Source of the DNA: an uncultured Lachnospiraceae bacterium | GTDB taxonomy: Bacteria; Bacillota; Clostridia; Lachnospirales; Lachnospiraceae | Direction of reading: 5' to 3' | Length of the DNA stretch: 64,000 nt | Assembly: GCA_902767135.1 (NCBI GenBank) | Contig: CACXGE010000066.1 | Location: forward strand, 5,313 to 69,312 | Shown here: piece after piece, positions 13,447 through 38,283 of the stretch | Layout of the letters: every line of letters starts with the position of its first letter | Position numbering within the stretch: position 1 is the stretch's first letter | The notes under the pieces: generated by a model | Database searches by the model: none | Seen by the model: the letters and a program-made list of their open reading frames with translations, nothing else | Told to the model about the DNA's origin: nothing | Translations under genes and position numbers: made by a program

Positions 13447-13471
13447 TTGATTCCGAAGTATTTCTTTATAG

Positions 13472-16400
13472 TTACTGAATGATAACCGTTGAAACGTTTG
13501 ACCAGTCACTATATACCTTCTTGGTTCCTACCTTCTTGTATGAACGAACCTTTACATAATATGTTTTTCCTGTCTTTAAGTTCTTCACTGTCTTGCTAAT
13601 GGTTCTGTTCTTTGTGATAGAAATGCTCTTTCTGTACTTCTTGGCAAAGCTGTCCTTGGTACTGTAGTAGATTTCATATCCGGTAACTGTCTTGTCCTCC
13701 TGCCAAGTCATCTTCATTGTCTTTGTCTTTGGCATTGTGACACTAAAGTTATTCACACGTGCAGGCTTGATGTAGCAGTACAAAGTTCTGCTTCCAGTAA
13801 AGTTGTTGATTCCCTTGATGGTAATCTTCATCTTGCCTGGATTCTTGTTAGAAGAACAAGTTACTTTATAGCTGGAATTTGCATATACACTTACTTTTCC
13901 AAAAGTAGCTGTAAGTGATGGATTCTGCGCATTTCCATTGTAGGTTAGATCCGGAATTTTTGCAAATTTTACCTTGGTGATGCTGGCTGGTTTGATTGCA
14001 AAGCTAAACGTCTTGTTTCCTGTGTAATTTGTACCCATGGCACGAATGGTTACCGTTGCAGTTCCTACATTGATATTAGAAAGGTAAGTTACGGTATAAT
14101 CCTTATCCTTTACTAAGGTCTTTCCTAAATCTGTCACTGTAACTGCAGGGGTCAATGCACTTCCTGTATAAGTCAGAGATGTAGCTGCAAGCTTCACTGA
14201 TGCCTTTGTCAAGTCTCTGGAGGTGATACGATAAGATAGAGTTCTTTCACCTGTGTAATTGCCTATACCCTTGATTACAATTTGTTTAATTCCACAATTT
14301 TTCATATCACTTGGGTATGTGATGTTGTAGTCCTTACCTTCAACTAGAGCTTCACCATTATTTGTCTTTACGGTAATGGCTGGCTTATGTGCTTTTCCGT
14401 CATACTCTACCGTTGTCTCATCCATGGATATAGAACCAAGGTTGGTTCCCACCACTTCGATTTCTCTCTCTTCAGAATATCTTCCATCTGCTGAAGATAT
14501 AACTACCTTTGTCTTTCCTGCCTTTAATGCAGTAATTGTCGCTATAGCTACATTTCCATTTCTTGATGGTACCAAAGAAAGGATGGTTGGATCTGCCACT
14601 GTAAATACCACTGCGTCTGCATTTGCCTGTAACTGAACCCTAATGAACTGATTGCTGCTTCCAAAAGCAACCGTTTTTGGTACTGAAATGCTTTCAAAAC
14701 TTGTAATACGGTTTACAACGTTTACGTTAATGGTAGTGGTCTGATTTGACGCTGTTGCTTTTGCAGTAAGCTTTGCAGTTCCTGCTTTATTCCCGTTGAT
14801 AACACAGGAATGTGTATCAATACTTGGATTCAGAGAAGCAACGGCATCGTTGGATGATGTCCACTCTACTTTTTCATTTGCATTGTTTGTGACATTAAAC
14901 TTAACAGTATTCGTTTCTCCTGTGTATACATATACATCTTTATTGTTTTCAATCGCATTGTTATTATCATCATAAAGAGTCATGCTCTCCAATCCGATTG
15001 CCACCTTTACAAGGCAGGTTGCCTTCAGTTCATCATTAATCTTTGCTGTGATGGTAACCATTTCATCGGATGGTGTAAGTCCAGTAATCTCACCATTATC
15101 ATTTACAGAAACCAAGTTTGGATTTGAACTTTCATAAATAACCTTGTCTGTGGTATCCTGTGGAACTACCTTCACACCTAACTTATGAGTGGCTCCCTTT
15201 GAGATAACCGTATATGCATACTGCGTTTCTTCCATCTCAATAGCGGTAGCCGGCACCAATATATGAACCAATACCGTTGCCACCTTTTTGCTCTGTCTGG
15301 AAGTCAACTTTACTGTCACATCTCCCTTAGTTATTGGTGTTAAAGTAAGGCTTCCTTCATTTTCTAATTTTTCCTTGTCATAAGAGACAACATTACCTTC
15401 CTGTTCCACTGTCCAGTAGAAATCATCGTTGGATGTTAATCCACTGTCGCTAAACAAATTGGCATTTAAAGTATATGACTTTCCTTTAGCTAAAGAAAGT
15501 TCACCCTGTGCGGACACATTTTCCTCACCATATGTAATGTAAGCTGTTGTAGCATGATATGCCTTAGATAAGGTAATGGTAGCGCTTGCTGTAGCTGTAG
15601 ACAAATACTCTCCATTTACACTTACCTTTCCAAGTCCACCTTCTCCTGCAATGTACACATAACAGGTATTTCCCTTGAAAGTAGACAATAATTTAGATTG
15701 ATCTAAATCATTCAAATTGATTGCATCATTTGGATCTAACAATGCAACCTTTTTCACATCTGTTGTTGTCCATGTATACTTTTCATTCACGTCAGCACCT
15801 TCGTTAGGTGTTGCAGTAAGCTTATAAATATGTCCGTTAATTCCAACAAAATTTGAAGTATTCAGTGTAAGTTTCGTAGCTGCTGCAATCACAGTGATGT
15901 TAATCATTGCCTGCTTACCTGAACTTGCTGCTGTTGCAATCAGGCTGGCTTTTCCTGCTCCTACTGGTGTTACATTACCATTGCCATCTACAGTAAATAC
16001 TTTTTCATCAGAACTAGCCCATACAATATTTTCATTTGCCGTAGTGCTCTCACTATCCAAAAGCTTGGCAGAATACTTTACTGTTCCACTGGAGGTATAA
16101 AGTGTCTGGTTTCCAACTACCTGTTCATCTCTTAAAATCTGAATATCATCTGCTAAGTTCAATTTCTGTACATAAATATCATAACTTACACTCTTTGCAC
16201 TTCTTGAAGAAGTCAAAGTTGATTTTGCTCTAAGTGTAATGGTAATATTACCTTCTCTGACAGCCTTCACTAAACCATCCTGGGTGACTGAGGCCACGTT
16301 GGCATCTGAACTCTCCCAATATGCCTCGTCCGTAGAATCACACACATAGTCCCAGTTGTTTTTAAGTTCGTCGTATCTGAATCGGCTTAAGAACAGTGGA

Positions 16401-17713
16401 TTTAACTGTACACTTTCACCTTCTACCAATGACATTCCTCTTTCTTTTCCGTCATCTACAACTCCGTATGCAACATTCCCTTCGACATTACTCTTATATG
16501 TATATTGAGCTCTGTTCACCTGACCCTTTTCGTCTTTAGCATACTCTTTTTCATATAATCCTTCAAAACTCTTGACATTGGTCTTTCCCGGAGCCTCTTC
16601 CTTACATATTCCTAATTCGAATGCCTCTGCAAGAACCACCATCTTATAAGGCTTTGATGCCTGACCAGACTCTGTGATAATAGACAAAGTACCTGCAGTG
16701 GTTGCCTTATATCCATATACTTTCATTACAAAAGAATATGATGTATCACTCAGTTTTTTCATGGAGTAAATTCCTGCCCCAAAACAGTTGTCTTTGTCAT
16801 TTGAGCTGACTAATACAGCATCGTCAACATCATCCGCACTGATGGCAGTTCCCACCGCTTTTTCCGGATTAACAAGAGTTCCCTCTACCACACCTGAAAT
16901 ATCAACACATTCGTCCACATCTACATAAATAGAGTCTGTGGACATATGAGGATACTTTGTGATGTTTTCTCCATTGGTACTTGCTATTGCCACAATGTCC
17001 TTGACATTGGAAGCTGATTTGAATACTTTGATATTCTGTTCTCTTTTCTTTCCGTTGACAGAAGCAGAAATCACTACTTCTCCGTTGGCTGGCTTACTTT
17101 CACCAAAAGTAACGGTTGCATACTTTACAACACTTCCCACATAGGTTGTGGTGTCATTTTTACTATCTTCTGGTGTAACTGTTACATTTTCATCAGAACT
17201 ACTCCACACTACTGAGTTAAAATCAGCAACAGGAACTACTGTCTTTACTTGGATGCTTGTCTTAGTATACTGCTTTTCAAAGTCAGTATCTCTCTCACCT
17301 TGAATCTGTGCAATGCCATCTACAATCTTTAATACTGCTGTTCTGGAATCATTGCTGGTTGCTGCTTTTACAGTGATTTCGTCACTTACTCCTTCTGCTA
17401 CCGTAACCTTAAAGTTCTTGGATACACCGTTGGTAGCTTTTGTGTCATCTAACACCTGTGTAGAAATTCCTTCTCTGGTATCACAGGTCCAAGTTACCTC
17501 TGTATTCTCTACTGTCAATACAGACAATGTAATTTCAGAACCTGCCCAGACATAATCCATGGACTTGTCTGCTGTAATCACAGCATTTTGTACAAATCCG
17601 GTTTCTGCAGCTTTTGCTGGCGTATAATCCATCAGAACACTGGTCACAACCACTGCCATTGCCATCAAAAATGCTACACAAGATTTCATTTTTTGTGTCA
17701 TTTTTTTTCTCAT
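13472..17713 (-). CDS. Secreted 1413-aa surface protein with multiple Big_2 (bacterial Ig-like) domains, three tandem ~75-aa YxG...DYxVTY...GNYTG repeats and a C-terminal fibronectin type III domain
   Basis: ATG 17713 is preceded by GGAGGAAAAC. The Sec signal MRKKMTQKMKSCVAFLMAMAVVVTSVLMDYTPAKA/AE is present. Repeated Big_2 signatures include WESSDANVASVTQDGLVKAVREGNITI, VWASSDEKVFTVDGNGNVTPVGAGKA and YESSNPNLVSVNDNGEITG. The FN3-like end reads GYEIYYS...YYVKVRSY. No LPXTG. Confidence 0.9.
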   Translation of the reverse strand: MRKKMTQKMKSCVAFLMAMAVVVTSVLMDYTPAKAAETGFVQNAVITADKSMDYVWAGSEITLSVLTVENTEVTWTCDTREGISTQVLDDTKATNGVSKNFKVTVAEGVSDEITVKAATSNDSRTAVLKIVDGIAQIQGERDTDFEKQYTKTSIQVKTVVPVADFNSVVWSSSDENVTVTPEDSKNDTTTYVGSVVKYATVTFGESKPANGEVVISASVNGKKREQNIKVFKSASNVKDIVAIASTNGENITKYPHMSTDSIYVDVDECVDISGVVEGTLVNPEKAVGTAISADDVDDAVLVSSNDKDNCFGAGIYSMKKLSDTSYSFVMKVYGYKATTAGTLSIITESGQASKPYKMVVLAEAFELGICKEEAPGKTNVKSFEGLYEKEYAKDEKGQVNRAQYTYKSNVEGNVAYGVVDDGKERGMSLVEGESVQLNPLFLSRFRYDELKNNWDYVCDSTDEAYWESSDANVASVTQDGLVKAVREGNITITLRAKSTLTSSRSAKSVSYDIYVQKLNLADDIQILRDEQVVGNQTLYTSSGTVKYSAKLLDSESTTANENIVWASSDEKVFTVDGNGNVTPVGAGKASLIATAASSGKQAMINITVIAAATKLTLNTSNFVGINGHIYKLTATPNEGADVNEKYTWTTTDVKKVALLDPNDAINLNDLDQSKLLSTFKGNTCYVYIAGEGGLGKVSVNGEYLSTATASATITLSKAYHATTAYITYGEENVSAQGELSLAKGKSYTLNANLFSDSGLTSNDDFYWTVEQEGNVVSYDKEKLENEGSLTLTPITKGDVTVKLTSRQSKKVATVLVHILVPATAIEMEETQYAYTVISKGATHKLGVKVVPQDTTDKVIYESSNPNLVSVNDNGEITGLTPSDEMVTITAKINDELKATCLVKVAIGLESMTLYDDNNNAIENNKDVYVYTGETNTVKFNVTNNANEKVEWTSSNDAVASLNPSIDTHSCVINGNKAGTAKLTAKATASNQTTTINVNVVNRITSFESISVPKTVAFGSSNQFIRVQLQANADAVVFTVADPTILSLVPSRNGNVAIATITALKAGKTKVVISSADGRYSEEREIEVVGTNLGSISMDETTVEYDGKAHKPAITVKTNNGEALVEGKDYNITYPSDMKNCGIKQIVIKGIGNYTGERTLSYRITSRDLTKASVKLAATSLTYTGSALTPAVTVTDLGKTLVKDKDYTVTYLSNINVGTATVTIRAMGTNYTGNKTFSFAIKPASITKVKFAKIPDLTYNGNAQNPSLTATFGKVSVYANSSYKVTCSSNKNPGKMKITIKGINNFTGSRTLYCYIKPARVNNFSVTMPKTKTMKMTWQEDKTVTGYEIYYSTKDSFAKKYRKSISITKNRTISKTVKNLKTGKTYYVKVRSYKKVGTKKVYSDWSNVSTVIIQ

Positions 17714-17737
17714 GTTTTCCTCCTTCTTTACTTGCGG

Positions 17738-17760
17738 AAAAGGGGTATTGCTACCCCTTT
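17738..17760 (-). other. Intercistronic stem-loop (9-bp perfect stem, GCAA tetraloop on the sense strand)
   Basis: AAAGGGGTA-gcaa-TACCCCTTT lies between the 2059-aa stop (17813) and the 1434-aa start (17713). There is no U-tract beyond the stem. Confidence 0.5.
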
Positions 17761-17812
17761 CATATATTTGCCTCATAACTGCCTGTGACAGCGGTTATAT
17801 ATGCCCCTTATG

Positions 17813-20800
17813 TTAATCCAAATCAAACAACTGTGCTCTGCTGATATCTAAAGCATCATGCACTGATGCTGTTTTCTGTTTTGAAGTACCCTCTCCGATT
17901 TCCGTGTGCATCTTTACGTAGAGTCTGGTATACTGCTGGGTCTTAAAGGCTTCGGAAACTGGAAGCATTACATAGTAAGTCTGACCGTTTTCTAAGGCAT
18001 TGTATTCCACTTCTGCGTCTGTCTTTGCATTGTAAATCTTTAGCTGGGCACTGCTTGTGTATCTCTTACCCTTTTCTTCTGTACCGCTAATATTTGTGGT
18101 ATCTGTACCTGCATCATAGGTCTGGAACAATTCTTCAATGACAATTTTCTTATTCTTTGCAGTCAGGTTACCGTCATATACGTTAAAGTATGCTCTTACG
18201 GTTCCGCTATTGCCGTCTGCAGTGTATGCAATATTGTCTGCCATTGGGGCAATCTGGCTTGCCACTTCCGTGGTTAAAGCCGCATCATAAGGAATGGTGA
18301 TATTGTCAATCTCCTCTGCATCGTACTCTCCGTTGTCCACAAAGCTGACTTCCGGAAGCTTAAGCTGGGCATTGTAAGCTGCAATCATGGTATTGATAAA
18401 GAGCTTGATTTCAGTGTCATCCGAAATAATATAATGCCCCGCTCCAGAATAGGTGATATTTCCCTTATTGTAAATGTAGTAGTTATTTCTCACGTCATTT
18501 GGACTGGCCTCATACAAGCCCTCTGCTCCTTCGTATCCCTTGACATCATTTAAGGTATACCACACAACCAAATCGCTTTCATCATCATTGTTGTCGTCAG
18601 CTTCCAAGTCTACGGTCCAGTACTGGGCATGGGTACATGCCACATCAAAGCTCTCTGGAAGTTTATACGGATAGTCTGTGATAGCACCGTCATTAATCTT
18701 TCCAATCTGAACCGTCATTTCAGGATTCGGTTCATCTCCATTATACCATTCATATTTCTTGGTGTTATCAATGCCCTTCATATAGGCAACTGCCTTAGCA
18801 TCTTTGTTTTTATTTCTCACACCGCCATAAGTATTACCCTGGGTATCACCACTTACCTCCTCCTGATTGGTATTTGGCTTAAATGCCACATCATGGGTGG
18901 AAAGACCTGCGATACTGTCCACAATTTCTGCCCATCGGCTACCTGCACTTGACTTGGTATAATCCTTACCAGTCGCCACTAACTTTTCATTACCATCTGA
19001 TACTTTAAAGTACTGGTCAATGTAAGTTAATGCATAAGTGTCACTTGCAAAATTTGACACGGGGTTCGCAAACAGCTTGGTGGTCAGTCCATACTGGTCC
19101 ATACCACAAAGTCCTCGGATACCAATGGTCATAAACTGGGAACTCTTAGCTGTAGTCTTATCATAATCTTTTGTATATTTTTCATCTACATAGGAACTCT
19201 TCTTCTTGTAATCTCCACTCCAAGAAGTGGTATCATGGGTGAAGAGGATACTCTTTCCGCTTTCCCCAAAGGTGTTCAACGCCTCTACAAAAGCTGCCTC
19301 TCCCTTGAATCCGGTGTCATCAGCCCCCGTAACATTCTTACCATTTAATGAGAAGGCATCAATAAATCCTACCACCACCATGTCGATTGGCTGGTTATCT
19401 ATGGTGTAATTTAGGAAGTAGTCTTTAATATCTGTATCCGATAGATTACTCTTGGTAAGTGTTTTGGCAATTTCATTACCAGATACTGTCTTAATCCTCA
19501 AGTCAAAGTCTGGAATTTCTTTCAGCAAATTATGCCAATTAGAATCATTGCTTCCATACAGTCCTTCTCCCTTAAGTGCCTTTTCCATATTGATATAAGT
19601 ACCCTCCATGGAAGTACGTTTCGTCTGTTCATTTGTAGTAGAGCCGGAGGTAATCTGTAGAATACGAATCACCTGTTTATCATTGGTTTTATCCTCTGTT
19701 CCGCTGGCAGTCTTTGGGTTTACCTTAATGGCACAGTAACCCTTCTTTTCTGCCAAGATACTTGAGAACTGATTGGAACGAACCTGGAGTTTCCAGTTGA
19801 TACATCCGTCAAAACTCTTTGGAAGCTTGTAGCTTAAGGTGTATACGTTACCTTCTGTGAGACTATACTCTCCATTTTCATTACAGCTTTCCACCTTTCC
19901 GGTTCCACGGTTTTTAATTACCATGGAAGTTTTACTTAAGTACTCAGAGTTTTCCGAAAATTTACCGTCAAAGTTCTGGTCTATGTAGAGATTACAGTCA
20001 AAGGTCTTATCACTGAGCACTGCACCTTCCAAGGTGGAGATAGAAAACTCATATCTTAGATAATACCTTCCCTCTGCATCCTCCTGCAGATACTGTACAT
20101 CTGCAATTGGACTACCTACCTTTCCTGTATCTTCTGTATAGGAATATTCTGTTGGAAGTTCTGTCAGGTTTAAATCAATTCTTGTAGTATTTAAGTAGTT
20201 TGCCAGTTTCTGCTGTGCCTCCACAGTATCATCAATCAGCAGATTGGGATACTGACGATTCTCCCAGTTAAAGATATCTGCACTAGTTTTACCTGAAATT
20301 TTCATATCATAGTTATAATAGCCTTTTTTCTTTACCTCTTCCGGCTGATAGATACCCTTTTCTGAAGATGCCAGCTTCAATACCTGATACAGATATGTGG
20401 AGCTATCTACTGTCACCGACTTATCAAAATCAATATCAGTACCAGTACTTGCCTTTGTATAATACGGTGAATATTTATAATGATCCCCAATATATATATT
20501 CGCATCCTCATCTGCTTTGGCACTTGAAATATCTACATTTCCCTTATCTGTTCCTTCCTTGGCATAAATCTTAACATACTTTGCATCGATTGGAATCGTA
20601 TAAGAGCTCACATGGTGATTTTTTGAATTTCTACTCCATTTTCCAGTTTCCAGTTTTCCATCAAAGGTCTTTCCATCAACAGAGACTGCATAATATTTTG
20701 GCAGGGCTGTCCAGGAACCATCTACCTCCAAGGTCAGCTTTCTTGTATCTCTTCTTGATGATATTCCCTGACCCTTTGCTTTAATGCTTTGAGGAGCCCC

Positions 20801-23800
20801 ATCTAATATATTAAATAAATTGTTGGCAACCAATACCGGATAACCTGATTCCAGGTAATTAATTAAATCACGCTTTTTATAAGAGGTCAAATCATTACCG
20901 CTGGTTCTCATCTGTGTGGTTCCGTACTGCTTTTTCGATAATTCCGCAGTTCGATCACCACCAGCATAATCCCTTGCCAAAAGCCCGTAAGAGCTGTAGG
21001 CATCACCTTGTATATAGGTTGTATCTCCAATATGGCTGTACACCAATCCTTTCATAGTAGTATCATTAAACAAACGATTGCCATTTACCAGGTCTGTAAT
21101 GCCGGTGGCATCTCCCGACTTATCTGTGTAGAAACATCCCACTCTACTACCGATACAGATTAAGTCATAGGTATCATTTAGATTCTCATTCTTTCCAATA
21201 AACTCCTGCATACTCTGGCTGGTAAAGGTAACATCAGAATATCTGTTGTTGTCTGCAAAATACTTCATGTACTTATCAATAAATTCCTTCTGTCGTGTGG
21301 TCAGGTATCCATTGGGTGTACTGATTTTCTCTCCATTTTTGTCTGTTACAAAATTGAGACTGGCATCCAGTGCACTGCAGGTCACAGTTAAAGCATAATG
21401 TGAGCCCACATCCACTGTAAAATCGCTGACCCCGGATACTGCTCCACTTCCCTTGTCGGATCCACTGCTGTATATTGTGATTTTATCCACATTGATTGGC
21501 ACCTGACAGACAGCTGTATGTGAACTATAGCCTGTAATTTCAATCTTTTCACTTTCCTTATCTGAGCCTGTCTGGGTATAGCTGTAATATTTTGGTAAGT
21601 CTTTCCAGTTACTTGGCACCTTGATTGTCATCTGCTTTTCCGTTCCCAGACCCTTTAGTGCAAAGTCCGGCCCCGGCTCGAGTTCCAAAACGGAAATCTT
21701 ATTCTTCTTGATTTCTACCGATGCACCGGTATAATTCAAAAGATACTGGATAATAATGTCCGAACCGATTTCTGTATCTTCAATTTTGGGACGATTGCTT
21801 TCCATAGCCGCATTTCGCTGGTTTTCCAGCTCAATTTCTTCTAAGACCTGAACAAACCCTGTCTTTAGCACATCCTTTGTCATAGCTGTGGTAAAATCAC
21901 CATTTGCCAGATTGTAGGTTGCAGGTTCACCATCCATTTCATCCTGAGAACGCTTTGCCATCACACTTTTCTTGTAATACTCTGCATGATAGGAGAAGAA
22001 ATATATCGCATCGTTGACATACTGTCCCTTTGTGGCTGCAAATTTTCCCTCTCCAGTGCTTACCGTGTCTTTTACATCTTCTGAGGTGATGGTAAAACTA
22101 TCCCACATTGCTTCGTCCACTGCAAAGGTACTGGTAGTCTCACTGGTAGATGTAAATTCACCCACCTGTTCTGCTGCTGTTTTATAGTCATCCTGTGCCA
22201 GGATGTAGAGCATCTTTAATGCCGGGTCGGAGGCTACCTTCTTAAGATATCCTTCTGCCATTGCAACAGAAGCTGAGTCAGAACTATCTGGGTCTATCAA
22301 GTCACTGATAGTACCCATAAAGCTGTTCAAGGCTTCTAAAATACTGGAATCAATCATAAGCTTTGCAGGATTTTGGCTATCCAAAGCCTGGTTCATAAGA
22401 TTGATGACATGACTGTTCATAATAGCAATCTCAGCATCTCCTGTACTTCTGTAAGCATTTAGAATCCATGGTGAAATTGCTGTAAGCGCATTTCCTTCCG
22501 GCTCTGCTTTTACATAGTCATAGAAAAGGAGACTGTCTCCATCGCGATACAGTACCGGATTGGAAATATAAACCAAATCATAGTCCGTCATGGTCAGTGA
22601 TGCTACATCCCTGATGGAAATACTGTCCACTGTGACAATATCACTTAATAACGCATTTTCTATTTCCTCGTTTGTCAGACCTAATACAGCCTTCTGGAAC
22701 AAAGAATTACTCTTGATTTCCGCATGGGCTTCAAATCGGTACATCCATCCCTGACCTTCATATCCATTGTCCCTTTGAGGATTTTCCATATCCTCACAGT
22801 CTTCTGGACAATCCGGATAAAATTCAAAATATTCGTAAACATTGGTATTATCTACCGTTTCTCCTTCTTCTATGTAGGTCAACTGGATATATCTTCCTTC
22901 CACCTCCACATATGGCTTATCGCTAGGTGCCACCATGGGAGTAGGGGTTGGGGTTGCCTCCTTGGTTGGTGTGAGAGTAGGTTCCGTTGTAGGTTCCTGG
23001 GTTGGCTCCAGGGTTGGAGTTGGAGTTGGTTCTGCTTCTCCACCTTCTGTTGTGCCTTCCTCTGATTGGCCCTGCTGAGGTTCTCCATCTTCCCGTACAT
23101 CAGCCTCGGCCACATCTTCTGTAGTCTCCCCTTCTTCCTCTGTCGGCTGACTAACCTGTGCCTCTGTGGTGGGCTCTTTGGTTTCTTCAGCCTCTGGAGC
23201 TGTCTCATTCTGGGCAGCCTCATTTACCTTTGCTTCCTGAGTGTCTACATCAGTTTCCTCCGTGGCAGCAGTTCCCACCCACACAGAAGTCTTTTCTGTT
23301 TTCTTTAAGGATGCCTGCTGTGGGGTACTGGAGCTGACCTCCACAGGGGTAGGAGTTGCCACCAGGACACCCTTATAGTGGGCTGTACCACTGGTCACCT
23401 TCTGGAAGGTACCATGGGTGAGCACTCCATCTTCCCCATCCTCTGTCTTCTTTAAGGCATATCCCTTTTTGCTTTCCGGGATTTTATTCACATTGTTGAT
23501 AAAATCTGTTCCACTCTCTGTTGCCTTATAGTAAGTCAGTGGATAATTGGTGGCATCAGAGGAATCCATGCTCAAAAGTCCCAATGCATGAAGTCTTTTT
23601 GCCAACTTTTCGATTTCGCTGTTGCTCATATCCGACAGCATCCCCTCAAAGGGGTCCTGTCCAATGAGCATCTTCATAATACTTACCGACTGGTCTTCCG
23701 GTAAGATTTCAAGAATCTTAAACTTCTGGATATCTGTGGTCTTAATCTCACCGTTTTCCGTCTTATACTTACTTTCCACATTTTTAAACATACCCTTCGC

Positions 23801-23989
23801 CTGAACATTCTGGTAAGAGGAATGTATTAGATTCACAGCAACCACTCCTACTAAAAGGGTGGCTACTGCAACCTTTATGGGAGTACGCAGTTTTTTCTTC
23901 TGATTTGTATTAACTTTCTGATGATTCTTTAAAATCTGCCCATCATCCCGTCCGGACCTGGATGCAAATTTCGAAAATATCTTTTTCAT
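17813..23989 (-). CDS. Giant (2058-aa) secreted or N-terminally anchored protein of unknown function encoded at the 3' end of the pilus operon
   Basis: Long uninterrupted ORF. ATG 23989 has GGAGAG 8 nt upstream; the track start at 23992 is TTG. It has one N-terminal hydrophobic span (VAVATLLVGVVAVNLI), an E/T/P-rich acidic linker and internally repeated modules. I recognise no prepilin motif, LPXTG or catalytic motif. Confidence 0.9.
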   Translation of the reverse strand: MKKIFSKFASRSGRDDGQILKNHQKVNTNQKKKLRTPIKVAVATLLVGVVAVNLIHSSYQNVQAKGMFKNVESKYKTENGEIKTTDIQKFKILEILPEDQSVSIMKMLIGQDPFEGMLSDMSNSEIEKLAKRLHALGLLSMDSSDATNYPLTYYKATESGTDFINNVNKIPESKKGYALKKTEDGEDGVLTHGTFQKVTSGTAHYKGVLVATPTPVEVSSSTPQQASLKKTEKTSVWVGTAATEETDVDTQEAKVNEAAQNETAPEAEETKEPTTEAQVSQPTEEEGETTEDVAEADVREDGEPQQGQSEEGTTEGGEAEPTPTPTLEPTQEPTTEPTLTPTKEATPTPTPMVAPSDKPYVEVEGRYIQLTYIEEGETVDNTNVYEYFEFYPDCPEDCEDMENPQRDNGYEGQGWMYRFEAHAEIKSNSLFQKAVLGLTNEEIENALLSDIVTVDSISIRDVASLTMTDYDLVYISNPVLYRDGDSLLFYDYVKAEPEGNALTAISPWILNAYRSTGDAEIAIMNSHVINLMNQALDSQNPAKLMIDSSILEALNSFMGTISDLIDPDSSDSASVAMAEGYLKKVASDPALKMLYILAQDDYKTAAEQVGEFTSTSETTSTFAVDEAMWDSFTITSEDVKDTVSTGEGKFAATKGQYVNDAIYFFSYHAEYYKKSVMAKRSQDEMDGEPATYNLANGDFTTAMTKDVLKTGFVQVLEEIELENQRNAAMESNRPKIEDTEIGSDIIIQYLLNYTGASVEIKKNKISVLELEPGPDFALKGLGTEKQMTIKVPSNWKDLPKYYSYTQTGSDKESEKIEITGYSSHTAVCQVPINVDKITIYSSGSDKGSGAVSGVSDFTVDVGSHYALTVTCSALDASLNFVTDKNGEKISTPNGYLTTRQKEFIDKYMKYFADNNRYSDVTFTSQSMQEFIGKNENLNDTYDLICIGSRVGCFYTDKSGDATGITDLVNGNRLFNDTTMKGLVYSHIGDTTYIQGDAYSSYGLLARDYAGGDRTAELSKKQYGTTQMRTSGNDLTSYKKRDLINYLESGYPVLVANNLFNILDGAPQSIKAKGQGISSRRDTRKLTLEVDGSWTALPKYYAVSVDGKTFDGKLETGKWSRNSKNHHVSSYTIPIDAKYVKIYAKEGTDKGNVDISSAKADEDANIYIGDHYKYSPYYTKASTGTDIDFDKSVTVDSSTYLYQVLKLASSEKGIYQPEEVKKKGYYNYDMKISGKTSADIFNWENRQYPNLLIDDTVEAQQKLANYLNTTRIDLNLTELPTEYSYTEDTGKVGSPIADVQYLQEDAEGRYYLRYEFSISTLEGAVLSDKTFDCNLYIDQNFDGKFSENSEYLSKTSMVIKNRGTGKVESCNENGEYSLTEGNVYTLSYKLPKSFDGCINWKLQVRSNQFSSILAEKKGYCAIKVNPKTASGTEDKTNDKQVIRILQITSGSTTNEQTKRTSMEGTYINMEKALKGEGLYGSNDSNWHNLLKEIPDFDLRIKTVSGNEIAKTLTKSNLSDTDIKDYFLNYTIDNQPIDMVVVGFIDAFSLNGKNVTGADDTGFKGEAAFVEALNTFGESGKSILFTHDTTSWSGDYKKKSSYVDEKYTKDYDKTTAKSSQFMTIGIRGLCGMDQYGLTTKLFANPVSNFASDTYALTYIDQYFKVSDGNEKLVATGKDYTKSSAGSRWAEIVDSIAGLSTHDVAFKPNTNQEEVSGDTQGNTYGGVRNKNKDAKAVAYMKGIDNTKKYEWYNGDEPNPEMTVQIGKINDGAITDYPYKLPESFDVACTHAQYWTVDLEADDNNDDESDLVVWYTLNDVKGYEGAEGLYEASPNDVRNNYYIYNKGNITYSGAGHYIISDDTEIKLFINTMIAAYNAQLKLPEVSFVDNGEYDAEEIDNITIPYDAALTTEVASQIAPMADNIAYTADGNSGTVRAYFNVYDGNLTAKNKKIVIEELFQTYDAGTDTTNISGTEEKGKRYTSSAQLKIYNAKTDAEVEYNALENGQTYYVMLPVSEAFKTQQYTRLYVKMHTEIGEGTSKQKTASVHDALDISRAQLFDLD

Positions 23990-24024
23990 CAACGTTACTC
24001 TCCTTCCTTAGATTGCTTATATCC

Positions 24025-25929: not shown

Positions 25930-25947
25930 TCTAGCTTCCCCCTTCCC

Positions 25948-26502: not shown

Positions 26503-26514
26503 ATTGCTTCCCCC

Positions 26515-29040
26515 TTATTCTTTCGACCAGTTTTCATAGCTTACCAAATCGGCAATGTCTAATTTATTGGTTCCATTCTTATTGTTATCTGATTTGCTTG
26601 TAATGTCCATTCCACTGTAGAATAAATCTTTTACAGCAATATTTCTCAGTTCTGTCTTACTTCCTATCAAAACTGGCAATTCTTTTGTAATATTCAATAC
26701 ACGTCTTACATCTTCTGCATTGTACTGGATATCCCCACTACTCTTTAAGTAAATAGTTCCACCACACACAATAGTTCCTTGAAACGCCCTATTCACCTGC
26801 ACATCTCCTGTGGCAATCAACAGGGAAGTTTCTGGATCTATTTTTGTTCCATCTACATTACAAACACCTTGCCCTTTATTGTTTACAACCAATGCTTTTA
26901 CTTTTTGTTCCGTATTTTCAAAAGTTACCGTAGAACCCAATGGACATATGTTATTTAATAAATCCACATTAATCAAGTTCTCAAAAATTGCATTTTCTTT
27001 CAACACCTTTGTCTTGGTGATTCCGTCTGCATCTGTGTAGGAAATACTCTCTCCCACCACAGAGTTTGCCAGTAGATTCAGACAATATCCGGTATACGCC
27101 TTGGTATAGAAGTCAATTTCCTTATCTATATTTGCACTTTCACCAGTTGCCTGATCTGTAGCCAGGGTACTTTCTACGATTTCATAGCTTACTTCCTTGG
27201 TATCCTCATCCTCTACCCTACGGATTACGTTACCTGCTACATTGAAGTTGTCAATTCCAATTGCTCCATTTTCATCCACAGGCACCTCTAACTGTGACAG
27301 ATAAATATTCAGATAATCTTTGATATGTTTGCTGTCTTCCTTGAAATAATCCCGAAAGAACTTGGACGCATCCTGCTGGGTCTCAAAGGTCATGTAGTAG
27401 TACACATAGGTATCTGAGGTTCCTCCCCCTACCGGCACATAACGGTTGATAAAGGAGGCATTGTACTTCTGGGCCAAATTATTTGTTTTCGCGGCAGTGT
27501 CTGCACCTGGTGTAGTGCTCGGTGCTGCTGTGACACCCTTGCTGCTGTCAGAATCTTTTCCCCAATACACCTGCACAGCCACCTTTTTTCCATTGTTGGT
27601 CTTACCTGCAGCACAATATTTATCAAAATTTTCCACCCGATCACTCTGCAGCCACTCGTAGTCCCAGCCCGGTGATGCATAGCCATCCAGCTTTGACTGA
27701 AGCACCGGATTGGTTCCCAATACCTGTTTGAAGCTGCCATCATCTTCCTGAATGTATCCAATTAAGTCAGCGGGAACCAGGTAGGCAATCTGTGCAACCT
27801 TGGCACTGACGGATTCTCCCATCATAATATCCCGGTTCTGAATTGTACCCACCGATGCATAAGGAGTAATATTTGCACTGTCTTTTCCACTGCGCACAAA
27901 GGTTCCAATATAGGCATTTCCCGGCAACAATAATCTATCTAATCCAGTCATGGACACCTTTGCCCTGGTACCATTGATGACAATGGCACTGCTCTCTGAT
28001 GCCTTTCCAAGGGATTCCCCTGCTTCATTTTTTGCCACATTGGTCTTTCCAAAACCAATATACTGATGCTGTAGGTTCAAAGTACTCTCATCCCCCAACA
28101 AGGTAGAGTCGTCCTTTACATAACTAGTTCCCAGCAATTCTACCTTCGCACCGTTATCTACCACCACGTTGGTAGTCCAAAGACTACTCCTACTGTCCAC
28201 TGAAAGTCCAGCCCTATTTCCGTCTGCAGACACAGTTCCATTTGTGATAATCAGTTCTGAGTCATGAAACGACACATTGGAACCATAGGAAGTAAAAATT
28301 CCGTCTTTTCCACCAAAAACACATCCAGAAATTTTTGTATTTTCACCATCTTTACTCTGTATGCTGTCGTTGGCAATCAAACTATAATTTACCAACTGTG
28401 GGATGGTAACTGCAGTATCAAAAGAAATGGCAGGCACTGCCACTCTGATATCCGTCTGAATCTTGGTAACATATCCTTTCTTATCCTTATAACAGACAAA
28501 TATATTCTTCAATACTACTCCATCCTTGCTGGCAGATATGGTAGCATCCTTTCCACTGGCTACCTCTACCGTAGCCCCCGGACTGGTCTTGATATCCGAA
28601 GTCAACACTTCTGCCGGAACCATACCACGAATTTTATCAATATCGTATTCTCTATCGTTATTTGCCTTCTGTACCCCACCTGTAAATTCCTTTACATAGG
28701 TATAGAGAAATCCATCGCTACGTTCTTCCTGGGTTTTGTACTTTTGATTGTTGTAGTTTTGCATAACCTCCATATATGCTACATCCGTAGCATCGGATGC
28801 ATTTTTCTGCAAGCCTGCTTTGATTTCTTCCAACACACCTTCCGCTGAGTAGAAGTTATTCTTAGAATTGGCATCGTTTGCTTTCATGTGAAAGTTGGCA
28901 AGACACATATAGAGTGACATTACCACCAAAATCCCCATCATTGCCATAATCACAACCACTAGAACAATGGCAGCACCCTGGTTGTTGGAGAACACATTAT
29001 TTTTTTTGATTTGCTTTATTTTATTTTTTATGCTCATCAT
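26515..29040 (-). CDS. Oversized (841 aa) PilX/GspK-like pseudopilin lacking Glu5
   Basis: The N-terminus ...NNQG/AAIVLVVVIMAMMGILVVMSLYM is a pilin-like hydrophobic helix with no acidic residue at +5. It sits among the minor pilin genes. The central part is rich in short beta-strand repeats (for example NGTVSADGNRAGLSVDSRSSLWTTNVVVDNGAKVELLG). Confidence 0.75.
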   Translation of the reverse strand: MMSIKNKIKQIKKNNVFSNNQGAAIVLVVVIMAMMGILVVMSLYMCLANFHMKANDANSKNNFYSAEGVLEEIKAGLQKNASDATDVAYMEVMQNYNNQKYKTQEERSDGFLYTYVKEFTGGVQKANNDREYDIDKIRGMVPAEVLTSDIKTSPGATVEVASGKDATISASKDGVVLKNIFVCYKDKKGYVTKIQTDIRVAVPAISFDTAVTIPQLVNYSLIANDSIQSKDGENTKISGCVFGGKDGIFTSYGSNVSFHDSELIITNGTVSADGNRAGLSVDSRSSLWTTNVVVDNGAKVELLGTSYVKDDSTLLGDESTLNLQHQYIGFGKTNVAKNEAGESLGKASESSAIVINGTRAKVSMTGLDRLLLPGNAYIGTFVRSGKDSANITPYASVGTIQNRDIMMGESVSAKVAQIAYLVPADLIGYIQEDDGSFKQVLGTNPVLQSKLDGYASPGWDYEWLQSDRVENFDKYCAAGKTNNGKKVAVQVYWGKDSDSSKGVTAAPSTTPGADTAAKTNNLAQKYNASFINRYVPVGGGTSDTYVYYYMTFETQQDASKFFRDYFKEDSKHIKDYLNIYLSQLEVPVDENGAIGIDNFNVAGNVIRRVEDEDTKEVSYEIVESTLATDQATGESANIDKEIDFYTKAYTGYCLNLLANSVVGESISYTDADGITKTKVLKENAIFENLINVDLLNNICPLGSTVTFENTEQKVKALVVNNKGQGVCNVDGTKIDPETSLLIATGDVQVNRAFQGTIVCGGTIYLKSSGDIQYNAEDVRRVLNITKELPVLIGSKTELRNIAVKDLFYSGMDITSKSDNNKNGTNKLDIADLVSYENWSKE

Positions 29041-29054
29041 ACATTATCCTCACT

Positions 29055-30446: not shown

Positions 30447-30470
30447 ATTAACCTCCCTTGCTAAGTCTAT

Positions 30471-30597
30471 GTAACAGTTTCACCCATAAGTTGAACTGTT
30501 ACAAAATGGAGCAACACTTCACATTTTAAATTGCCCCATTTTTGTTAAATCAATGTTCTTATACGGTCAGCCCAAAGACTGCGCCAACCTGCCTGAA
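30471..30597 (-). repeat. Three-hairpin intergenic repeat, copy C (reads in element orientation on the minus strand)
   Basis: Aligns over about 127 nt with copies at 52865-52994 and 54425-54552. Shared blocks are TTCAGGCAGGT, GCTGACCGT, ATTTAACAAAAAT-GGGCAATTT and GTAACAGTT...AACTGTTAC, and all three stems are preserved. Confidence 0.8.
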
Positions 30598-30618
30598 CGT
30601 TACATGTCTATTGCAACT

Positions 30619-30647
30619 TTACCCAAAGCAGCCTGTGCTTTGGGTAA
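30619..30647 (-). other. Perfect 12-bp stem-loop 22 nt downstream of the pilO stop
   Basis: TTACCCAAAGCA-5 nt-TGCTTTGGGTAA with no following U-tract. Confidence 0.55.
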
Positions 30648-30668
30648 TTAATAATTCACTAAAATTCA

Positions 30669-31427: not shown

Positions 31428-31445
31428 ATTTGTCTCCTCCCCTTA

Positions 31446-33332: not shown

Positions 33333-33389
33333 ATTATCTCTCCCTATCTTGATATAATGTAAAACATATATTCTATTTACAAAACGACC

Positions 33390-33452
33390 AATGCTAATAG
33401 TATAGCATTTTCCAAACAGTTCAATTTTTAAGCTGTTTGAAAAATACTATAC
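33390..33452 (-). promoter_or_regulatory. Structured pilD-pilMN intergenic RNA element: 20-bp-arm hairpin overlapping an alternative 7-bp hairpin
   Basis: Arms at 33400-33419 and 33433-33452. On the sense (minus) strand all 20 positions pair (18 Watson-Crick plus 2 G.U), while on the plus strand those two positions are C.A mismatches. A second hairpin, AATGCTA-6 nt-TAGCATT (33390-33409), competes for the same nucleotides. Confidence 0.55.
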
Positions 33453-33476
33453 CTGCCGTTATTGTTTTCCACTTCA

Positions 33477-34235: not shown

Positions 34236-34255
34236 AGGGGTGTTCCTTTCGTGTT

Positions 34256-34699
34256 TTAATTTGGCGTAACGTTGCCGTTACTATTTGTGTATGTAATATT
34301 ACAAGCCGGCCACTGGGTATTGGAAAATTTCACTTCGATTTTGGAATAGCTTTTACTTACCAATCGTGTTTTGTCATAATTTGTGCCCAGTACCGATTTT
34401 AAATAAGTGTCCAAATGGCTAGGGTTAGCCCCCGCCCCCGTGGCACTTATGATAACATCTCTGTTGGGAGTCAAAGTTATGATGTATTCGCCCCCCTCCA
34501 TGTTTTCTTCTTCATCACTGAGAAGCATGGCACAACTTTTGCGAATTTCGTCTGCCTGTCTTTCATCTTTAGCCACCCTGGACTTTTCCACATATTTTAC
34601 ATACTGTGGTGCAAGGATTGCTATCAATACTGCCATGATTGCCACAACAATAATCAGCTCAACCAAAGAAAAGCCTGCATCCCGTCCTTCTTTCTCCAT
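34256..34699 (-). CDS. pilA: Type IV pilin (second of a tandem pair)
   Basis: MEKEGRDAG/FSLVELIIVVAIMAVLIAILAPQYVKYVEKSRV. The track start at 34705 is GTG, and ATG 34699 follows GGAAGG. 147 aa. Confidence 0.88.
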   Translation of the reverse strand: MEKEGRDAGFSLVELIIVVAIMAVLIAILAPQYVKYVEKSRVAKDERQADEIRKSCAMLLSDEEENMEGGEYIITLTPNRDVIISATGAGANPSHLDTYLKSVLGTNYDKTRLVSKSYSKIEVKFSNTQWPACNITYTNSNGNVTPN

Positions 34700-34723
34700 A
34701 CCCACTAACCTTCCATTCTATCA

Positions 34724-35164
34724 CTATTTCGTATAATTATTTGTAGGATCAGATACTGTTACAGTCGGAACCTTAATATTAGCATTATTTGGATCTGCTT
34801 TAAACTCAACTTTGATAGTTACAGTCTTAGAATTATATGTCTTAGACTTTAAATTAGCATTTGCGATACTAGTCAATGCTGAAATTTCTGTTGATGCCTG
34901 AGTATCACTAACTGATGCCCCAGCTGTTCCACCTGTAATACTGATTGTAAAATCATTAGTAATCTGTGAATCTGGATCTGATACAGCTGTTTCTGCTGAC
35001 TTCTTCAGTTCATCAAGAGTATCTACGTCTGCTGACACTCTTGACTTTTCTACATACTTCATGTACTGTGGTGCTAAAATACCAATTAAGATAGCCATAA
35101 TAGCTACTACGATGATAAGTTCTACTAATGAGAAACCTTTGTTGTTTGAAAATCTCTTCTTCAT
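34724..35164 (-). CDS. pilA: Type IV pilin, likely the major subunit
   Basis: MKKRFSNNKG/FSLVELIIVVAIMAILIGILAPQYMKYVEKSRV. 146 aa. It is the first pilin after pilC, preceded by a 117-nt AT-rich spacer and a strong SD (GGAGAGAG). Confidence 0.9.
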   Translation of the reverse strand: MKKRFSNNKGFSLVELIIVVAIMAILIGILAPQYMKYVEKSRVSADVDTLDELKKSAETAVSDPDSQITNDFTISITGGTAGASVSDTQASTEISALTSIANANLKSKTYNSKTVTIKVEFKADPNNANIKVPTVTVSDPTNNYTK

Positions 35165-35281
35165 ATTGCTCTCTCCTTTTACCTTTTAAAAATTTTATAG
35201 TTTTTAAATTTATAACAAATCGTCCCCCTATTGACGAATTATTACCAAGTGTAATCCCCTTATATTTATACTCTTCTTTTT

Positions 35282-36493: not shown

Positions 36494-36507
36494 GATTCTC
36501 CTCCCAC

Positions 36508-38205
36508 TTATGAATCAAATGATACACGGATTGCCTCCGACATAGAAGTAATTCCTTCTATCGCATACTCTCCGGCTCTCATTCTCAATGTTTTCATTCC
36601 ATCTTTCAATGCAACTTCCTTGATTTCCTCGGCATCTGCATTGTGGGCGATTGCCCTTCTCACATCCGGTGTCACTTCCATAATCTCGTACACACCGATT
36701 CGTCCTTTATATCCAGTGTCATCACATTTATCGCATCCACAAGGCCGATATAATTTCAATGGCTGGTCCTCTGTGTAGCCAAGCATTTCCTTCTCATCCA
36801 CATGAGCCTCATACTCTTCTTTGCAGTCCGGGCAAAGTCTTCGCACCAGTCGCTGTGCAATGATACCCACCACCGAGTCTGCAATCAGATAATTTTCAAT
36901 TCCCATATCCGCCAGACGGGTGACGGTAGATGCCGCACTGTTGGTATGCAACGTAGATACTACCAAGTGACCTGTGATAGACGCCTGTACCGCAATACTT
37001 GCCGTCTCACCATCTCGAATTTCTCCAATCATGATGATATCCGGGTCCTGTCTCAAAATGGAGCGCAACGCAGATGCGAAGGTCAAATTGGCTTTTGGAT
37101 TTACCTGTACCTGATTGATACCGTCAATATTTGCTTCCACCGGATCTTCTACGGTGATGATATTTACATCTTCCTTATTTAATTCACTCAGTGCCGTGTA
37201 TAACGTTGTGGACTTACCACTACCGGTAGGTCCTGTAACCAACAGGATTCCATGAGGGTTTGACAGGATATGGTCAAACTTTTTCAGCTCATCATCATTA
37301 AAGCCCAGACGTTTCTTTTCCAACGTCAATGCGTTTTTGGATGTCAAACGCATTACCACTTTTTCTCCATATACTGTAGGCAATATAGAAACACGGATAT
37401 CATACTCCTGTCGGTCTACCACCTGAGTAATACGTCCATCCTGTGGTTTACGTTTTTCTGAGATATCCATTCCACCGATAATCTTGATACGCGCCACAAT
37501 AGCCGCCAGCAATCTGGTAGAGTAGGTCATTCTCTCATATAATGCGCCGTCAATACGATAACGAATTCGAACCTGACGTTCCATCGGTTCAATATGTATA
37601 TCGGAAGTTCTCTGACGAACTGCCTGTTCAATCATAGCTTTTACCAGCTGTACAATCGGAGAGTTGTTTACGTCTTCATTGTACATTTCTTCGCTTTCTT
37701 CCAGCTTAGATTCTTTTTCCTTTTCGTACTCGCTAACTGCTGAATAAACTTCCTTTTGTCCAAAATGTTTGTCCAAAACAATATTCAAGCATCGCCTTGT
37801 GGTGATTACCGGTTCCACCTGCAGGTTGGTGACGATATTGATGTCGTCAATGGCTTCCATATCCAAAGGATCCAACATCGCAACACGAAGTACATTAGGT
37901 CTGTCCGGTGCAAACTCAAATGGAATCATTCCGTATTTCTGTAAAATGTTGCTAGGAACAAGCTCCAGGATTTTTTCATCGATTTTTACATTGGTCAAAT
38001 CGATATATTCCAAATGCAACTGTTCTCCCAGAACTTTTACAAAAGTTTCCTCGGATACTATGTTGTTGTCAACCAACACTTCTCCCAGTTTGCCTCCGTT
38101 TTGCTTTTGAAGTTCCAACCCCTTCTGCAATTGTTCCTCTGTGATGATTCCCTGATTAATCAGCAAATCCCCCAACCGTAATCTTCTTCTATTCATTATT
38201 GCCAT
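36508..38205 (-). CDS. pilB: Type IV pilus assembly ATPase PilB (GspE family) with an N-terminal MshEN domain
   Basis: Has Walker A GPTGSGKST, Walker B DPDIIMIGEIRD and a tetracysteine CPDC...CDKC. The N-terminal RLGDLLINQGIITEEQL... is an MshEN/T2SSE_N domain. The start is uncertain: the ORF track gives 38232, while I prefer ATG 38205, which has GAAAGG upstream. Confidence 0.93.
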   Translation of the reverse strand: MAIMNRRRLRLGDLLINQGIITEEQLQKGLELQKQNGGKLGEVLVDNNIVSEETFVKVLGEQLHLEYIDLTNVKIDEKILELVPSNILQKYGMIPFEFAPDRPNVLRVAMLDPLDMEAIDDINIVTNLQVEPVITTRRCLNIVLDKHFGQKEVYSAVSEYEKEKESKLEESEEMYNEDVNNSPIVQLVKAMIEQAVRQRTSDIHIEPMERQVRIRYRIDGALYERMTYSTRLLAAIVARIKIIGGMDISEKRKPQDGRITQVVDRQEYDIRVSILPTVYGEKVVMRLTSKNALTLEKKRLGFNDDELKKFDHILSNPHGILLVTGPTGSGKSTTLYTALSELNKEDVNIITVEDPVEANIDGINQVQVNPKANLTFASALRSILRQDPDIIMIGEIRDGETASIAVQASITGHLVVSTLHTNSAASTVTRLADMGIENYLIADSVVGIIAQRLVRRLCPDCKEEYEAHVDEKEMLGYTEDQPLKLYRPCGCDKCDDTGYKGRIGVYEIMEVTPDVRRAIAHNADAEEIKEVALKDGMKTLRMRAGEYAIEGITSMSEAIRVSFDS

Positions 38206-38254
38206 AATGACTGCACGCCTTTCTACGTTCATAGTTTCATAAAACTTTAGTAAA

Positions 38255-38283
38255 ATTTTAACATTTGCTTAATTGTTTCGCAA
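38255..38283 (-). promoter_or_regulatory. Candidate sigmaA promoter of the pil operon
   Basis: The minus strand reads TTGCGA-17 nt-TAAAAT. Phased T/A-tracts lie further upstream (38306-38330 and 38415-38451). Confidence 0.35.

Follow-up and report, generated by a model that had tools for sequence, protein, structure and literature searches.

The 64-kb window analysed here, the whole stretch of DNA from an uncultured gut Lachnospiraceae bacterium, contains a clostridial-type type IVa pilus (T4aP) operon. Thirteen open reading frames (ORFs), all co-directional on the minus strand, span 38232 to 13472 with intergenic gaps of 12-222 nt (Table 1). Five large proteins account for 5407 of the 7995 codons (68%) of this gene array. 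An initial annotation of the same DNA had counted 13 co-directional minus-strand genes and had assigned about two thirds of the coding length to the five large proteins, and both statements were borne out; of its gap range of 11-222 nt, the upper value stood and the lower one did not. The distal half of the operon is a conserved five-gene cassette, in which four minor-pilin genes are followed by the gene for a giant non-pilin of the DUF5057 family (giant 1). The pilus machine itself is an ordinary clostridial type IV pilus (T4P). The last gene of the array encodes a second giant (giant 2), and the two giants are not equivalent.

Table 1. Coordinates of the pilus genes, the two giants and associated features in the window (arrow, predicted cleavage site; HMM family matches are from Pfam)
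Feature	Position	Strand	Evidence and remarks
Candidate sigma-A promoter	38255..38283	-	TTGCGA, 17-nt spacer, TG-TAAAAT; 9/12 matches + TG
PilB extension ATPase, 574 aa	36508..38232	-	T2SSE E 2.5e-143; N-terminal MshEN E 2e-16
PilC platform protein, 403 aa	35282..36493	-	T2SSF E 1e-57, two stretches
Pilin 1, 146 aa	34724..35164	-	Class III signal peptide KG↓FSLVELIIV; N_methyl E 2e-8
Pilin 2, 149 aa	34256..34705	-	Class III signal peptide AG↓FSLVELIIV; N_methyl E 5e-7
PilD prepilin peptidase, 252 aa	33477..34235	-	A24_N_bact E 1.5e-34; Peptidase_A24 E 2e-17
PilM fused to PilN-like region, 628 aa	31446..33332	-	PilM_2 E 8e-11; low-complexity A/T/E/P tail
PilO-position bitopic protein, 252 aa	30669..31427	-	No Pfam family; named by operon position
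Minor pilin 1, 463 aa	29055..30446	-	DG↓FTLVE; N_methyl; N-terminus nearest GspI/ComGE; large C-terminal extension
Minor pilin 2, 841 aa, GspK/PilX-like	26515..29040	-	Gly22 invariant, no Glu5; sub-threshold PilX_N and GspK
Minor pilin 3, 184 aa	25948..26502	-	KG↓FSLIE; N_methyl; N-terminus nearest GspH/ComGD-GE
Minor pilin 4, 610 aa	24097..25929	-	KG↓LSLVE; N_methyl; large C-terminal extension
Giant 1, DUF5057-family non-pilin	17813..23992	-	ORF of 2059 aa; signal peptide, divergent N-part, core
Acidic DxDxDG-like loop of giant 1, aa 1795-1807	18572..18610	-	D1799 and D1807 invariant in 71/71
C-terminal tail of giant 1	17816..17851	-	LDISRAQLFDLD-COOH, ending LFDLD; candidate docking strand
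Terminator/attenuator-like hairpin	17738..17760	-	AAAGGGGUA-GCAA-UACCCCUUUU; 9-bp GC-rich stem then UUUU, z -3.2
Giant 2, 1413 aa from ATG 17713	13472..17713	-	Sec signal peptide (AKA↓AE), Big_2 repeats, C-terminal fn3
Strong intrinsic terminator ending the gene array	13421..13448	-	12-bp stem, 6 GC pairs, U run

A conserved cassette of four minor pilins and a DUF5057 giant

Genomes were scanned with one genome per species, and 457 of them carried relatives of giant 1. Locus counts refer to the best 79 loci, which are the relatives nearest the query; remoter DUF5057 proteins might sit in other contexts. Almost all of the 79 are labelled as Lachnospiraceae or as its genera (Agathobacter, Acetatifactor, Blautia, Roseburia, Lachnotalea, Anaerobium and Waltera). 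Four contigs with the cassette (L028, L039, L069 and L086) bear the labels Bacteroides, Muribaculaceae, Bacteroidaceae and Thermoguttaceae, probably through errors in the binning or labelling of metagenome-assembled genomes.

The initial annotation had taken both giants as cargo of the filament or as its tip or shaft partners and had suggested a survey of gene neighbourhoods around homologues of the 2059-aa protein. In this survey, minor-pilin genes lay directly upstream of the giant in all 51 loci with at least 6.5 kb of upstream DNA, and the exact order 463-841-184-610-giant was kept in 43 of them. The median gap between minor pilin and giant in the 51 loci was 22 nt, and several of the genes overlapped. 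Gene order around the cassette is plastic. In 13-14 loci (L023, L030-L033, L036-L037, L039-L040, L043, L048-L049, L080) pilB was found directly downstream of the giant instead of at the operon head, and the giant therefore lies inside the pil cluster there. The same order as in the window was found for six of six metagenomic homologues of giant 1 (26-45% identity). Furthermore, a reciprocal search from the 841-aa minor pilin led to five distant loci (24-29% identity), all five of which carried a member of the giant family, 1695-2192 aa in length, 3' of the fourth minor pilin and with the same C-terminal tail. These findings support giant 1 as a partner of the filament system and not as an unrelated neighbour. 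For giant 2, with full-length orthologues in 7 of the 79 loci and a hairpin ahead of its gene, the earlier claim was not supported in that form.

A phmmer search with the core sequence of giant 1 against 1.84 billion cluster representatives (50% identity) recovered 1386 family members, of which 1164 had E <= 1e-10. Nearly all of the 150 matches listed were 1400-2700 aa long and had the matching region at the C-terminal end. Public records name these proteins hypothetical, and no paper naming DUF5057 or describing this cassette or protein was found in the literature library searched.

A class III signal peptide (G↓F/L-S/T-L-x-E) was present in exactly five ORFs of the window. The N-termini of the minor pilins suggest that the 463-aa subunit is I-like, the 841-aa subunit K-like, the 184-aa subunit H-like and the 610-aa subunit a fourth type, the I-, K- and H-like matches being weak and covering little beyond the N-terminal helix. 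The 463-, 841- and 610-aa proteins had initially been described as three oversized prepilin-like proteins. This was correct for the 463- and 610-aa proteins, which match N_methyl; the 841-aa protein has neither an N_methyl match nor Glu5. It does carry the invariant Gly22 with a hydrophobic residue at +5, as in GspK and PilX, and its matches to PilX_N (17.1 bits, cut-off 25.5) and GspK (E 0.03) were below threshold. The extreme C-terminus of the 841-aa pilin is highly conserved (DLVSYENWSKE; family pattern DL[IV]xYxNWxK[EKR]), with only 6% of its 12-residue windows more conserved. No such conservation was seen at the C-termini of the 463-, 184- and 610-aa pilins.

The structural model of the 841-aa pilin (pLDDT 76) has a long α1 helix followed by a β-helix-like segment (aa ~219-372). 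Foldseek with this model matched no GspK or PilX structure; its sole fold match was the tapirin 4wa0 (E 8.9e-3, probability 0.77, TM 0.34), for which a profile search gave E 0.22. Tapirins (Caldicellulosiruptor, Calkro_0844, PDB 4wa0) are anchor-less adhesins of ~600-900 aa with a C-terminal β-helix cellulose-binding domain, encoded beside a T4P locus in a monoderm Firmicute, and what ties them to the pilus is unexplained. This fold is absent from giant 1, and the weak β-helix resemblance is confined here to the 841-aa minor pilin. This likeness raises the question whether tapirins are related to such K-like pilins.

Anatomy of the giant non-pilin

The start codon of giant 1 is most likely ATG 23989, which gives a protein of 2058 aa (P0001) and agrees with the public gene call. 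Pfam placed DUF5057 (PF16480) at aa 1189-1587 with 139.1 bits against a cut-off of 27.9 (E 3.4e-40). The N-terminus consists of a 38-residue basic region and an 18-residue hydrophobic segment, followed by VQA↓KG (signal peptide, aa 1-66). A hydrophobic segment with AxA 8-12 residues later is kept across the family, and we read this N-terminus as a Sec type I signal peptide, with the predicted cleavage site judged by eye. The mature N-terminus is also conserved, with the pattern (E/D)T(F/L)xG(I/L)E ... ILEIVPD.

The N-terminal 40% of giant 1 is divergent and length-variable and includes a PT/E-rich linker (aa 205-360); lengths in the family range from 1317 to 2530 aa. Where relatives have a core identity of 44-52%, that of the N-terminal part is 28-39%, and in distant members this part cannot be aligned. 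The conserved core comprises the C-terminal 1190 aa (aa 870-2059). An AlphaFold2 (AF2) model of the core, made with 21 sequences (pLDDT 68, pTM 0.73), has α/β modules alternating with β-sandwiches, plus a C-terminal sandwich, and contains no propeller. Foldseek of the core against the PDB returned generic Ig-like and β-sandwich matches alone (TM < 0.1), and the α/β modules were unmatched. The best E value in PDB sequence searches with giant 1, as single sequence and as profile, was 0.67. NCBIfam and relaxed Pfam searches on both giants gave nothing informative beyond DUF5057, Big_2 and fn3, and Pfam up to E 10 found no PilY1-type β-propeller (IPR008707) in giant 1.

Several positions of the core are invariant in 71 of 71 family members, namely H1586 and D1587 (in THDTT), H1788, Q1790, D1799, D1807, the GNITYSGAGH motif and E1861. 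The acidic loop that holds D1799 and D1807 is a candidate calcium site, and the invariant His, Asp, Gln, Asn and Glu residues together with this loop suggest a metal or catalytic site in the DUF5057 core. The C-terminal tail follows the pattern [RK]xx[LM][FL][DE]L[DE]-COOH in 78 of the 79 related loci.

Both giants have a single hydrophobic segment, which is N-terminal. Neither has an LPXTG motif or a C-terminal hydrophobic segment, and Pfam found no SLH or choline-binding (CW_binding) domain in them. This agrees with the initial annotation, which had described Sec-type N-termini without a wall anchor and had named HMM searches as a check; Pfam on the giants detected no cell-wall anchor. Three identities could be ruled out for giant 1. 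It is no pilin, as the scan for class III signal peptides found no prepilin motif in it, it is not sortase- or SLH-anchored (no LPXTG or SLH), and it is no homologue of PilY1, with no β-propeller by Pfam, AF2 or Foldseek.

Two inserts of ~90 aa lie in giant 1 at aa ~790-880 (~21350-21625, minus strand) and ~1088-1180 (~20450-20730, minus strand), each past an α/β module. They align directly with 29% identity (E 1e-9) and share a W..LPKYY motif, and an internal duplication of a two-domain unit is therefore indicated. BLAST self-comparison of the giants at E 1e-3 reported no internal repeats and missed this pair.

Pilus machinery, internal hairpins and the second giant

The genes that flank the array are housekeeping genes, with aroE and efp on one side and Gate-domain proteins and aroC on the other. 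The sigma-A site proposed at 38255-38283 in the initial annotation is present, in the A-rich 290-nt spacer between aroE and pilB. Promoter-like sites of this kind occur in this DNA at chance frequency (33 found, 31.6 expected), and we therefore grade it as a candidate only. PilB possibly starts at Met10, which has a GAAAGG ribosome-binding site. Its MshEN domain (37753-38016, minus strand) is of a type that binds cyclic di-GMP (c-di-GMP). An Rfam search over the whole window found no family, and so no c-di-GMP riboswitch like that of C. difficile pilA1; any control by c-di-GMP would therefore act at the protein level.

The initial annotation had matched the core genes to the known Gram-positive T4P layout. 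Pfam supported this for PilB, PilC, the pilins, PilD and PilM, and gave no family for PilO. The 252-aa protein at the PilO position is kept at the same place in related loci. The PilN part of the 628-aa fusion has no Pfam match in the window, and its homologues show faint to clear PilN matches. The mature N-termini of the tandem pilins 1 and 2 (34256-35164, minus strand) are nearly identical (FSLVELIIVVAIMA), and related loci carry one or two such tandem pilin genes. The 146/149-aa pair recalls the heteropolymeric pilus of S. sanguinis with its two major pilins. The monoderm T4aP of C. difficile, C. perfringens and S. sanguinis have the same core as here (PilB, PilC, PilD, fused PilMN, PilO and several pilins, the PilN part and PilO being putative here) and likewise have oversized (modular) pilins. 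The C. difficile and C. perfringens clusters are not known to carry a giant non-pilin gene of this kind.

PilB was the sole ORF of the T2SSE family in the 64-kb window, so that no PilT is encoded in it. The initial annotation was thus right that the window holds no PilT-type ATPase. It had also listed the missing PilT as a non-standard feature, and here we differ: the absence carries little weight, because the related locus L087 has a PilT-like gene (350-aa T2SSE, 1921-2973) between pilB and pilC. Clostridial pilT genes are often located elsewhere on the chromosome.

Two spacers of the operon are structured. Between the PilD and PilMN genes (33333-33476) lies a nearly perfect hairpin of ~21 bp (33399-33453, minus strand) without a U tract; the spacer folds with -34 kcal/mol (z = -4.9), and Rfam has no match for the hairpin, which could act in RNA processing or stability or be what is left of a repeat. 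The spacer that separates the PilO-like gene from minor pilin 1 (30447-30668, minus strand), unusually long at 222 nt against ~70-120 nt in relatives, is strongly structured (z = -3.4 and -4.3); a 12-bp hairpin stands just past the stop codon, and a further hairpin has UUUUGU after it. This spacer may serve as an attenuator within the operon and adjust how much minor pilin is made relative to the machinery.

Giant 2 most likely starts at ATG 17713, with an AAGGAGG ribosome-binding site, and is 1413 aa long, as in public calls, and not 1434 aa. Between its Big_2 region and fn3, at aa ~1110-1340 (within 13472-14400, minus strand), three repeats of ~85 aa with YDGKAHKP...GNYTG were seen by eye; Pfam at the thresholds used did not report them. 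Full-length orthologues (36-99% identity) were found in the closest clade only, in 7 of 79 species loci, and all of them lie directly 3' of giant 1. The remaining similarity of giant 2 is to the Big_2 repeats of generic Ig-domain proteins. In other clades the slot 3' of giant 1 is occupied by pilB, a ~700-aa family, a 309-aa LRR-type protein or unrelated genes. Because its orthologues are limited to one clade and its slot is filled differently elsewhere, giant 2 is a clade-specific accessory. It is an Ig-repeat surface protein with an optional and unproven link to the pilus.

The initial annotation had placed the first hairpin with a U tract at 13417-13446. A strong terminator does lie there; it is not the first, since a hairpin with UUUU occurs at 17738-17760, ~25 nt ahead of the start codon of giant 2. 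Clade relatives have a hairpin of different sequence at the equivalent place. It is followed by a U run in L008-L013, is of the textbook type in L009-L013 (13-bp stem and U5), and has no U run in L001 and L014. The distance from hairpin to start codon is 25-45 nt in the window and these relatives, which leaves no room for a giant 2 promoter, and we therefore read the hairpin as an attenuator, read-through of which would allow expression of giant 2. Where the 610-aa pilin gene adjoins giant 1, only weak AT-rich hairpins occur (z = -1.3), and in relatives the two genes are usually 10-40 nt apart or overlap.

A possible tip partner for a monoderm pilus

PilC/PilY1 plugs into PilK by β-strand addition with its last 12 residues, which are needed for pilus biogenesis (10.64898/2026.09.18.752573). 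According to the same preprint of September 2026, monoderm T4aP are without PilC/PilY1 and have their tips functionalised by modular pilins only. In the MSHA pilus of Vibrio cholerae, the large PilY1-unrelated protein MshQ is encoded 3' of PilIJK homologues, and its C-terminal strand is predicted to add to the PilK homologue; where no such partner exists, the PilK homologue itself supplies the additional strand in cis (PMC13533445).

Giant 1 resembles PilC/PilY1 (Neisseria PilC1/2, Pseudomonas PilY1) in being a very large, anchor-less non-pilin with a predicted type I signal peptide, whose gene directly follows core minor pilins, in its variable N-terminal part and conserved C-terminal part with a short conserved tail, and possibly in its acidic loop, a candidate calcium site. 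It differs from them in fold: PilC/PilY1 have the IPR008707 β-propeller, whereas the core of giant 1 consists of α/β modules and β-sandwiches and has no similarity to theirs in sequence or fold. Without the β-propeller that defines PilC/PilY1, giant 1 falls outside that family. Furthermore, the hosts of PilC/PilY1 are diderm, whereas that of giant 1 is a monoderm without secretin, and the giant 1 gene lies 3' of the fourth pilin and not of the K-like one. MshQ is likewise large and unrelated to PilY1, is encoded directly 3' of PilIJK-type minor pilins, and was proposed by synteny and modelling, the same line of argument as here. It belongs to another family and another envelope, and its prediction rests on AlphaFold models of the complex, that for giant 1 on analogy. 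Reviews of the T4aP of C. difficile, C. perfringens and S. sanguinis state that a non-pilin partner of the PilC/PilY1 type is missing there and that modular pilins alone functionalise the tips, whereas here a giant non-pilin is fixed in the cassette.

Judging by where its gene lies, by its architecture and by its conserved C-terminal tail, we consider it the most probable reading, with a slightly better than even chance, that giant 1 is a non-homologous analogue of PilC/PilY1 and MshQ, carried by the minor-pilin tip complex through a docking that we infer. The initial annotation had likened the system to pseudopilus-driven export or to modular-pilin adhesion, and by the same three features PilC/PilY1/MshQ is closer. 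A wider proposal is more tentative, and we would not put it at even odds: the DUF5057 giants may be the missing PilC/PilY1 equivalent of monoderm T4aP, tip proteins of new structure that prime assembly, mediate adhesion and dock by their invariant C-terminal strand on a complete H/I/J/K-like minor-pilin complex, spread over hundreds of Lachnospiraceae species of the gut (Agathobacter, Roseburia, Blautia, Acetatifactor).

For a tip partner of this kind, the following steps can be envisaged. Giant 1 would be exported by Sec and its signal peptide cut at the conserved AxA site. Outside the membrane, the conserved core and the acidic-hydrophobic tail (...LFDLD-COOH) would bind the minor-pilin priming complex, most likely at the 841-aa K-like pilin, which has an equally conserved last strand of its own. 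PilB would then polymerise the two major pilins beneath the complex, and giant 1 would be lifted through the wall to the pilus tip. At this site the divergent N-terminal modules of giant 1, which vary in length, would act as the adhesin and bind ligands, and the core may in addition license or regulate assembly, for instance via the DxDxDG-like acidic loop.

Several points weigh against a tip partner of the PilC/PilY1 kind. The docking step is drawn by analogy and the interaction is putative. Giant 1 is no homologue of PilY1, the β-propeller being absent by Pfam, AF2 secondary structure and Foldseek. AF2 places most of the last 15 residues in a strand inside the C-terminal β-sandwich and leaves only LFDLD free, and the tail is therefore no clearly protruding 12-residue plug. 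The conserved terminal strand of the K-like pilin, as in GspK and ComGG, could license assembly in cis and make a plug unneeded (PMC13533445). Since conservation is seen both in the tail and in the K-like pilin's last strand, the trans and cis versions are both plausible; covariation between the two termini was viewed by eye, and both were too invariant, with variants too closely bound to clades, for an analysis corrected for phylogeny. A pilus tip would face a heavy mechanical task in carrying a protein of ~220 kDa across the thick wall of a Gram-positive cell. The polar residues that are strictly invariant could fit the active site of an enzyme just as well, and the divergence of the N-terminal region exceeds that of the core only moderately (see the identities above).

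The strongest alternative, which we nevertheless regard as unlikely, is that giant 1 is a stationary part of the envelope, held by an uncleaved N-terminal helix, that forms or opens a passage through the thick peptidoglycan, either as a substitute for the secretin and alignment layers or as a dedicated wall-remodelling enzyme. The hydrophobic segment of ~18 residues, past a very basic N-region of 38, could be a signal anchor, the polar residues invariant in 71 of 71 members suggest a catalytic or metal site, the α/β modules resemble enzyme-like folds, and the gene order is as rigid as for components of a machine. However, the conserved AxA 8-12 residues past the hydrophobic segment fits cleavage. 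The length range of 1317-2530 aa, the divergent N-part, the PT-rich linkers and the Ig-like sandwiches are typical of adhesins and not of machine parts, no hydrolase family was matched in Pfam, NCBIfam or PDB, and the T4aP of the monoderm S. sanguinis, which has been studied, does not require a component of this kind (PMC6916266).

It is more doubtful still that giant 1 is cargo, the export option of the initial annotation, exported by Sec and then pushed off the cell by a short filament in the manner of a type II secretion system (T2SS) or of TcpF and CofJ. Like TcpF and CofJ of T4b pili and like T2SS substrates, giant 1 is operon-encoded, Sec-exported by its signal peptide as we read it, anchor-less and tied to tip minor pilins. 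Its mature N-terminus is conserved, and T4b cargo binds the minor-pilin trimer through its N-terminus, which serves as export signal (10.64898/2026.09.18.752573). These cargos differ, however, in being small, in using an N-terminal peptide and in belonging to diderm hosts that need a second export step. Conservation in giant 1 is strongest in the C-terminal core and tail rather than in an extended N-terminal peptide; lacking an outer membrane, a monoderm requires no second-step exporter for a Sec substrate; and one gene per cassette directly past four minor pilins suits tip partners such as PilY1 and MshQ better.

That the giants are unrelated surface proteins which merely adjoin the pil operon is very improbable: for giant 1 it is practically excluded by the adjacency in 51/51 and 5/5 loci down to ~25% identity, by the short or overlapping junctions and by pilB downstream in 13-14 loci, and what speaks for it concerns giant 2 only (the terminator-like hairpin before the gene, orthologues in one clade with otherwise generic Big_2 similarity, and a slot filled differently in other clades), for which the position of every full-length orthologue directly 3' of giant 1 and the 25-45 nt between hairpin and start, without space for a promoter, speak against it.

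Within the limits of the library searched, the DUF5057 giant is an undescribed, widespread and structurally novel non-pilin partner on an ordinary clostridial T4P machine. What is new is that a giant non-pilin is fixed in a minor-pilin cassette, in at least 457 species genomes and ~1400 clusters at 50% identity; our literature and database searches found no name, paper or solved structure for the family. If the DUF5057 giants are indeed the PilC/PilY1 equivalent, this would overturn the view that monoderm T4aP lack such a protein and functionalise their tips by modular pilins only. Cultured carriers (Lachnotalea glycerini DSM 28816, Anaerobium acetethylicum GluBS11 and Waltera hominis CLA-AA-H183) make the idea directly testable. 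As a tip protein, giant 1 would bring a new fold to the pilus tip and would be an independent case of the design in which a large partner is joined by a C-terminal strand. It would also sharpen the question of how a monoderm passes a bulky tip through its wall, and it would be a candidate colonisation factor, or factor for binding fibre or mucus, of dominant butyrate-producing gut commensals.

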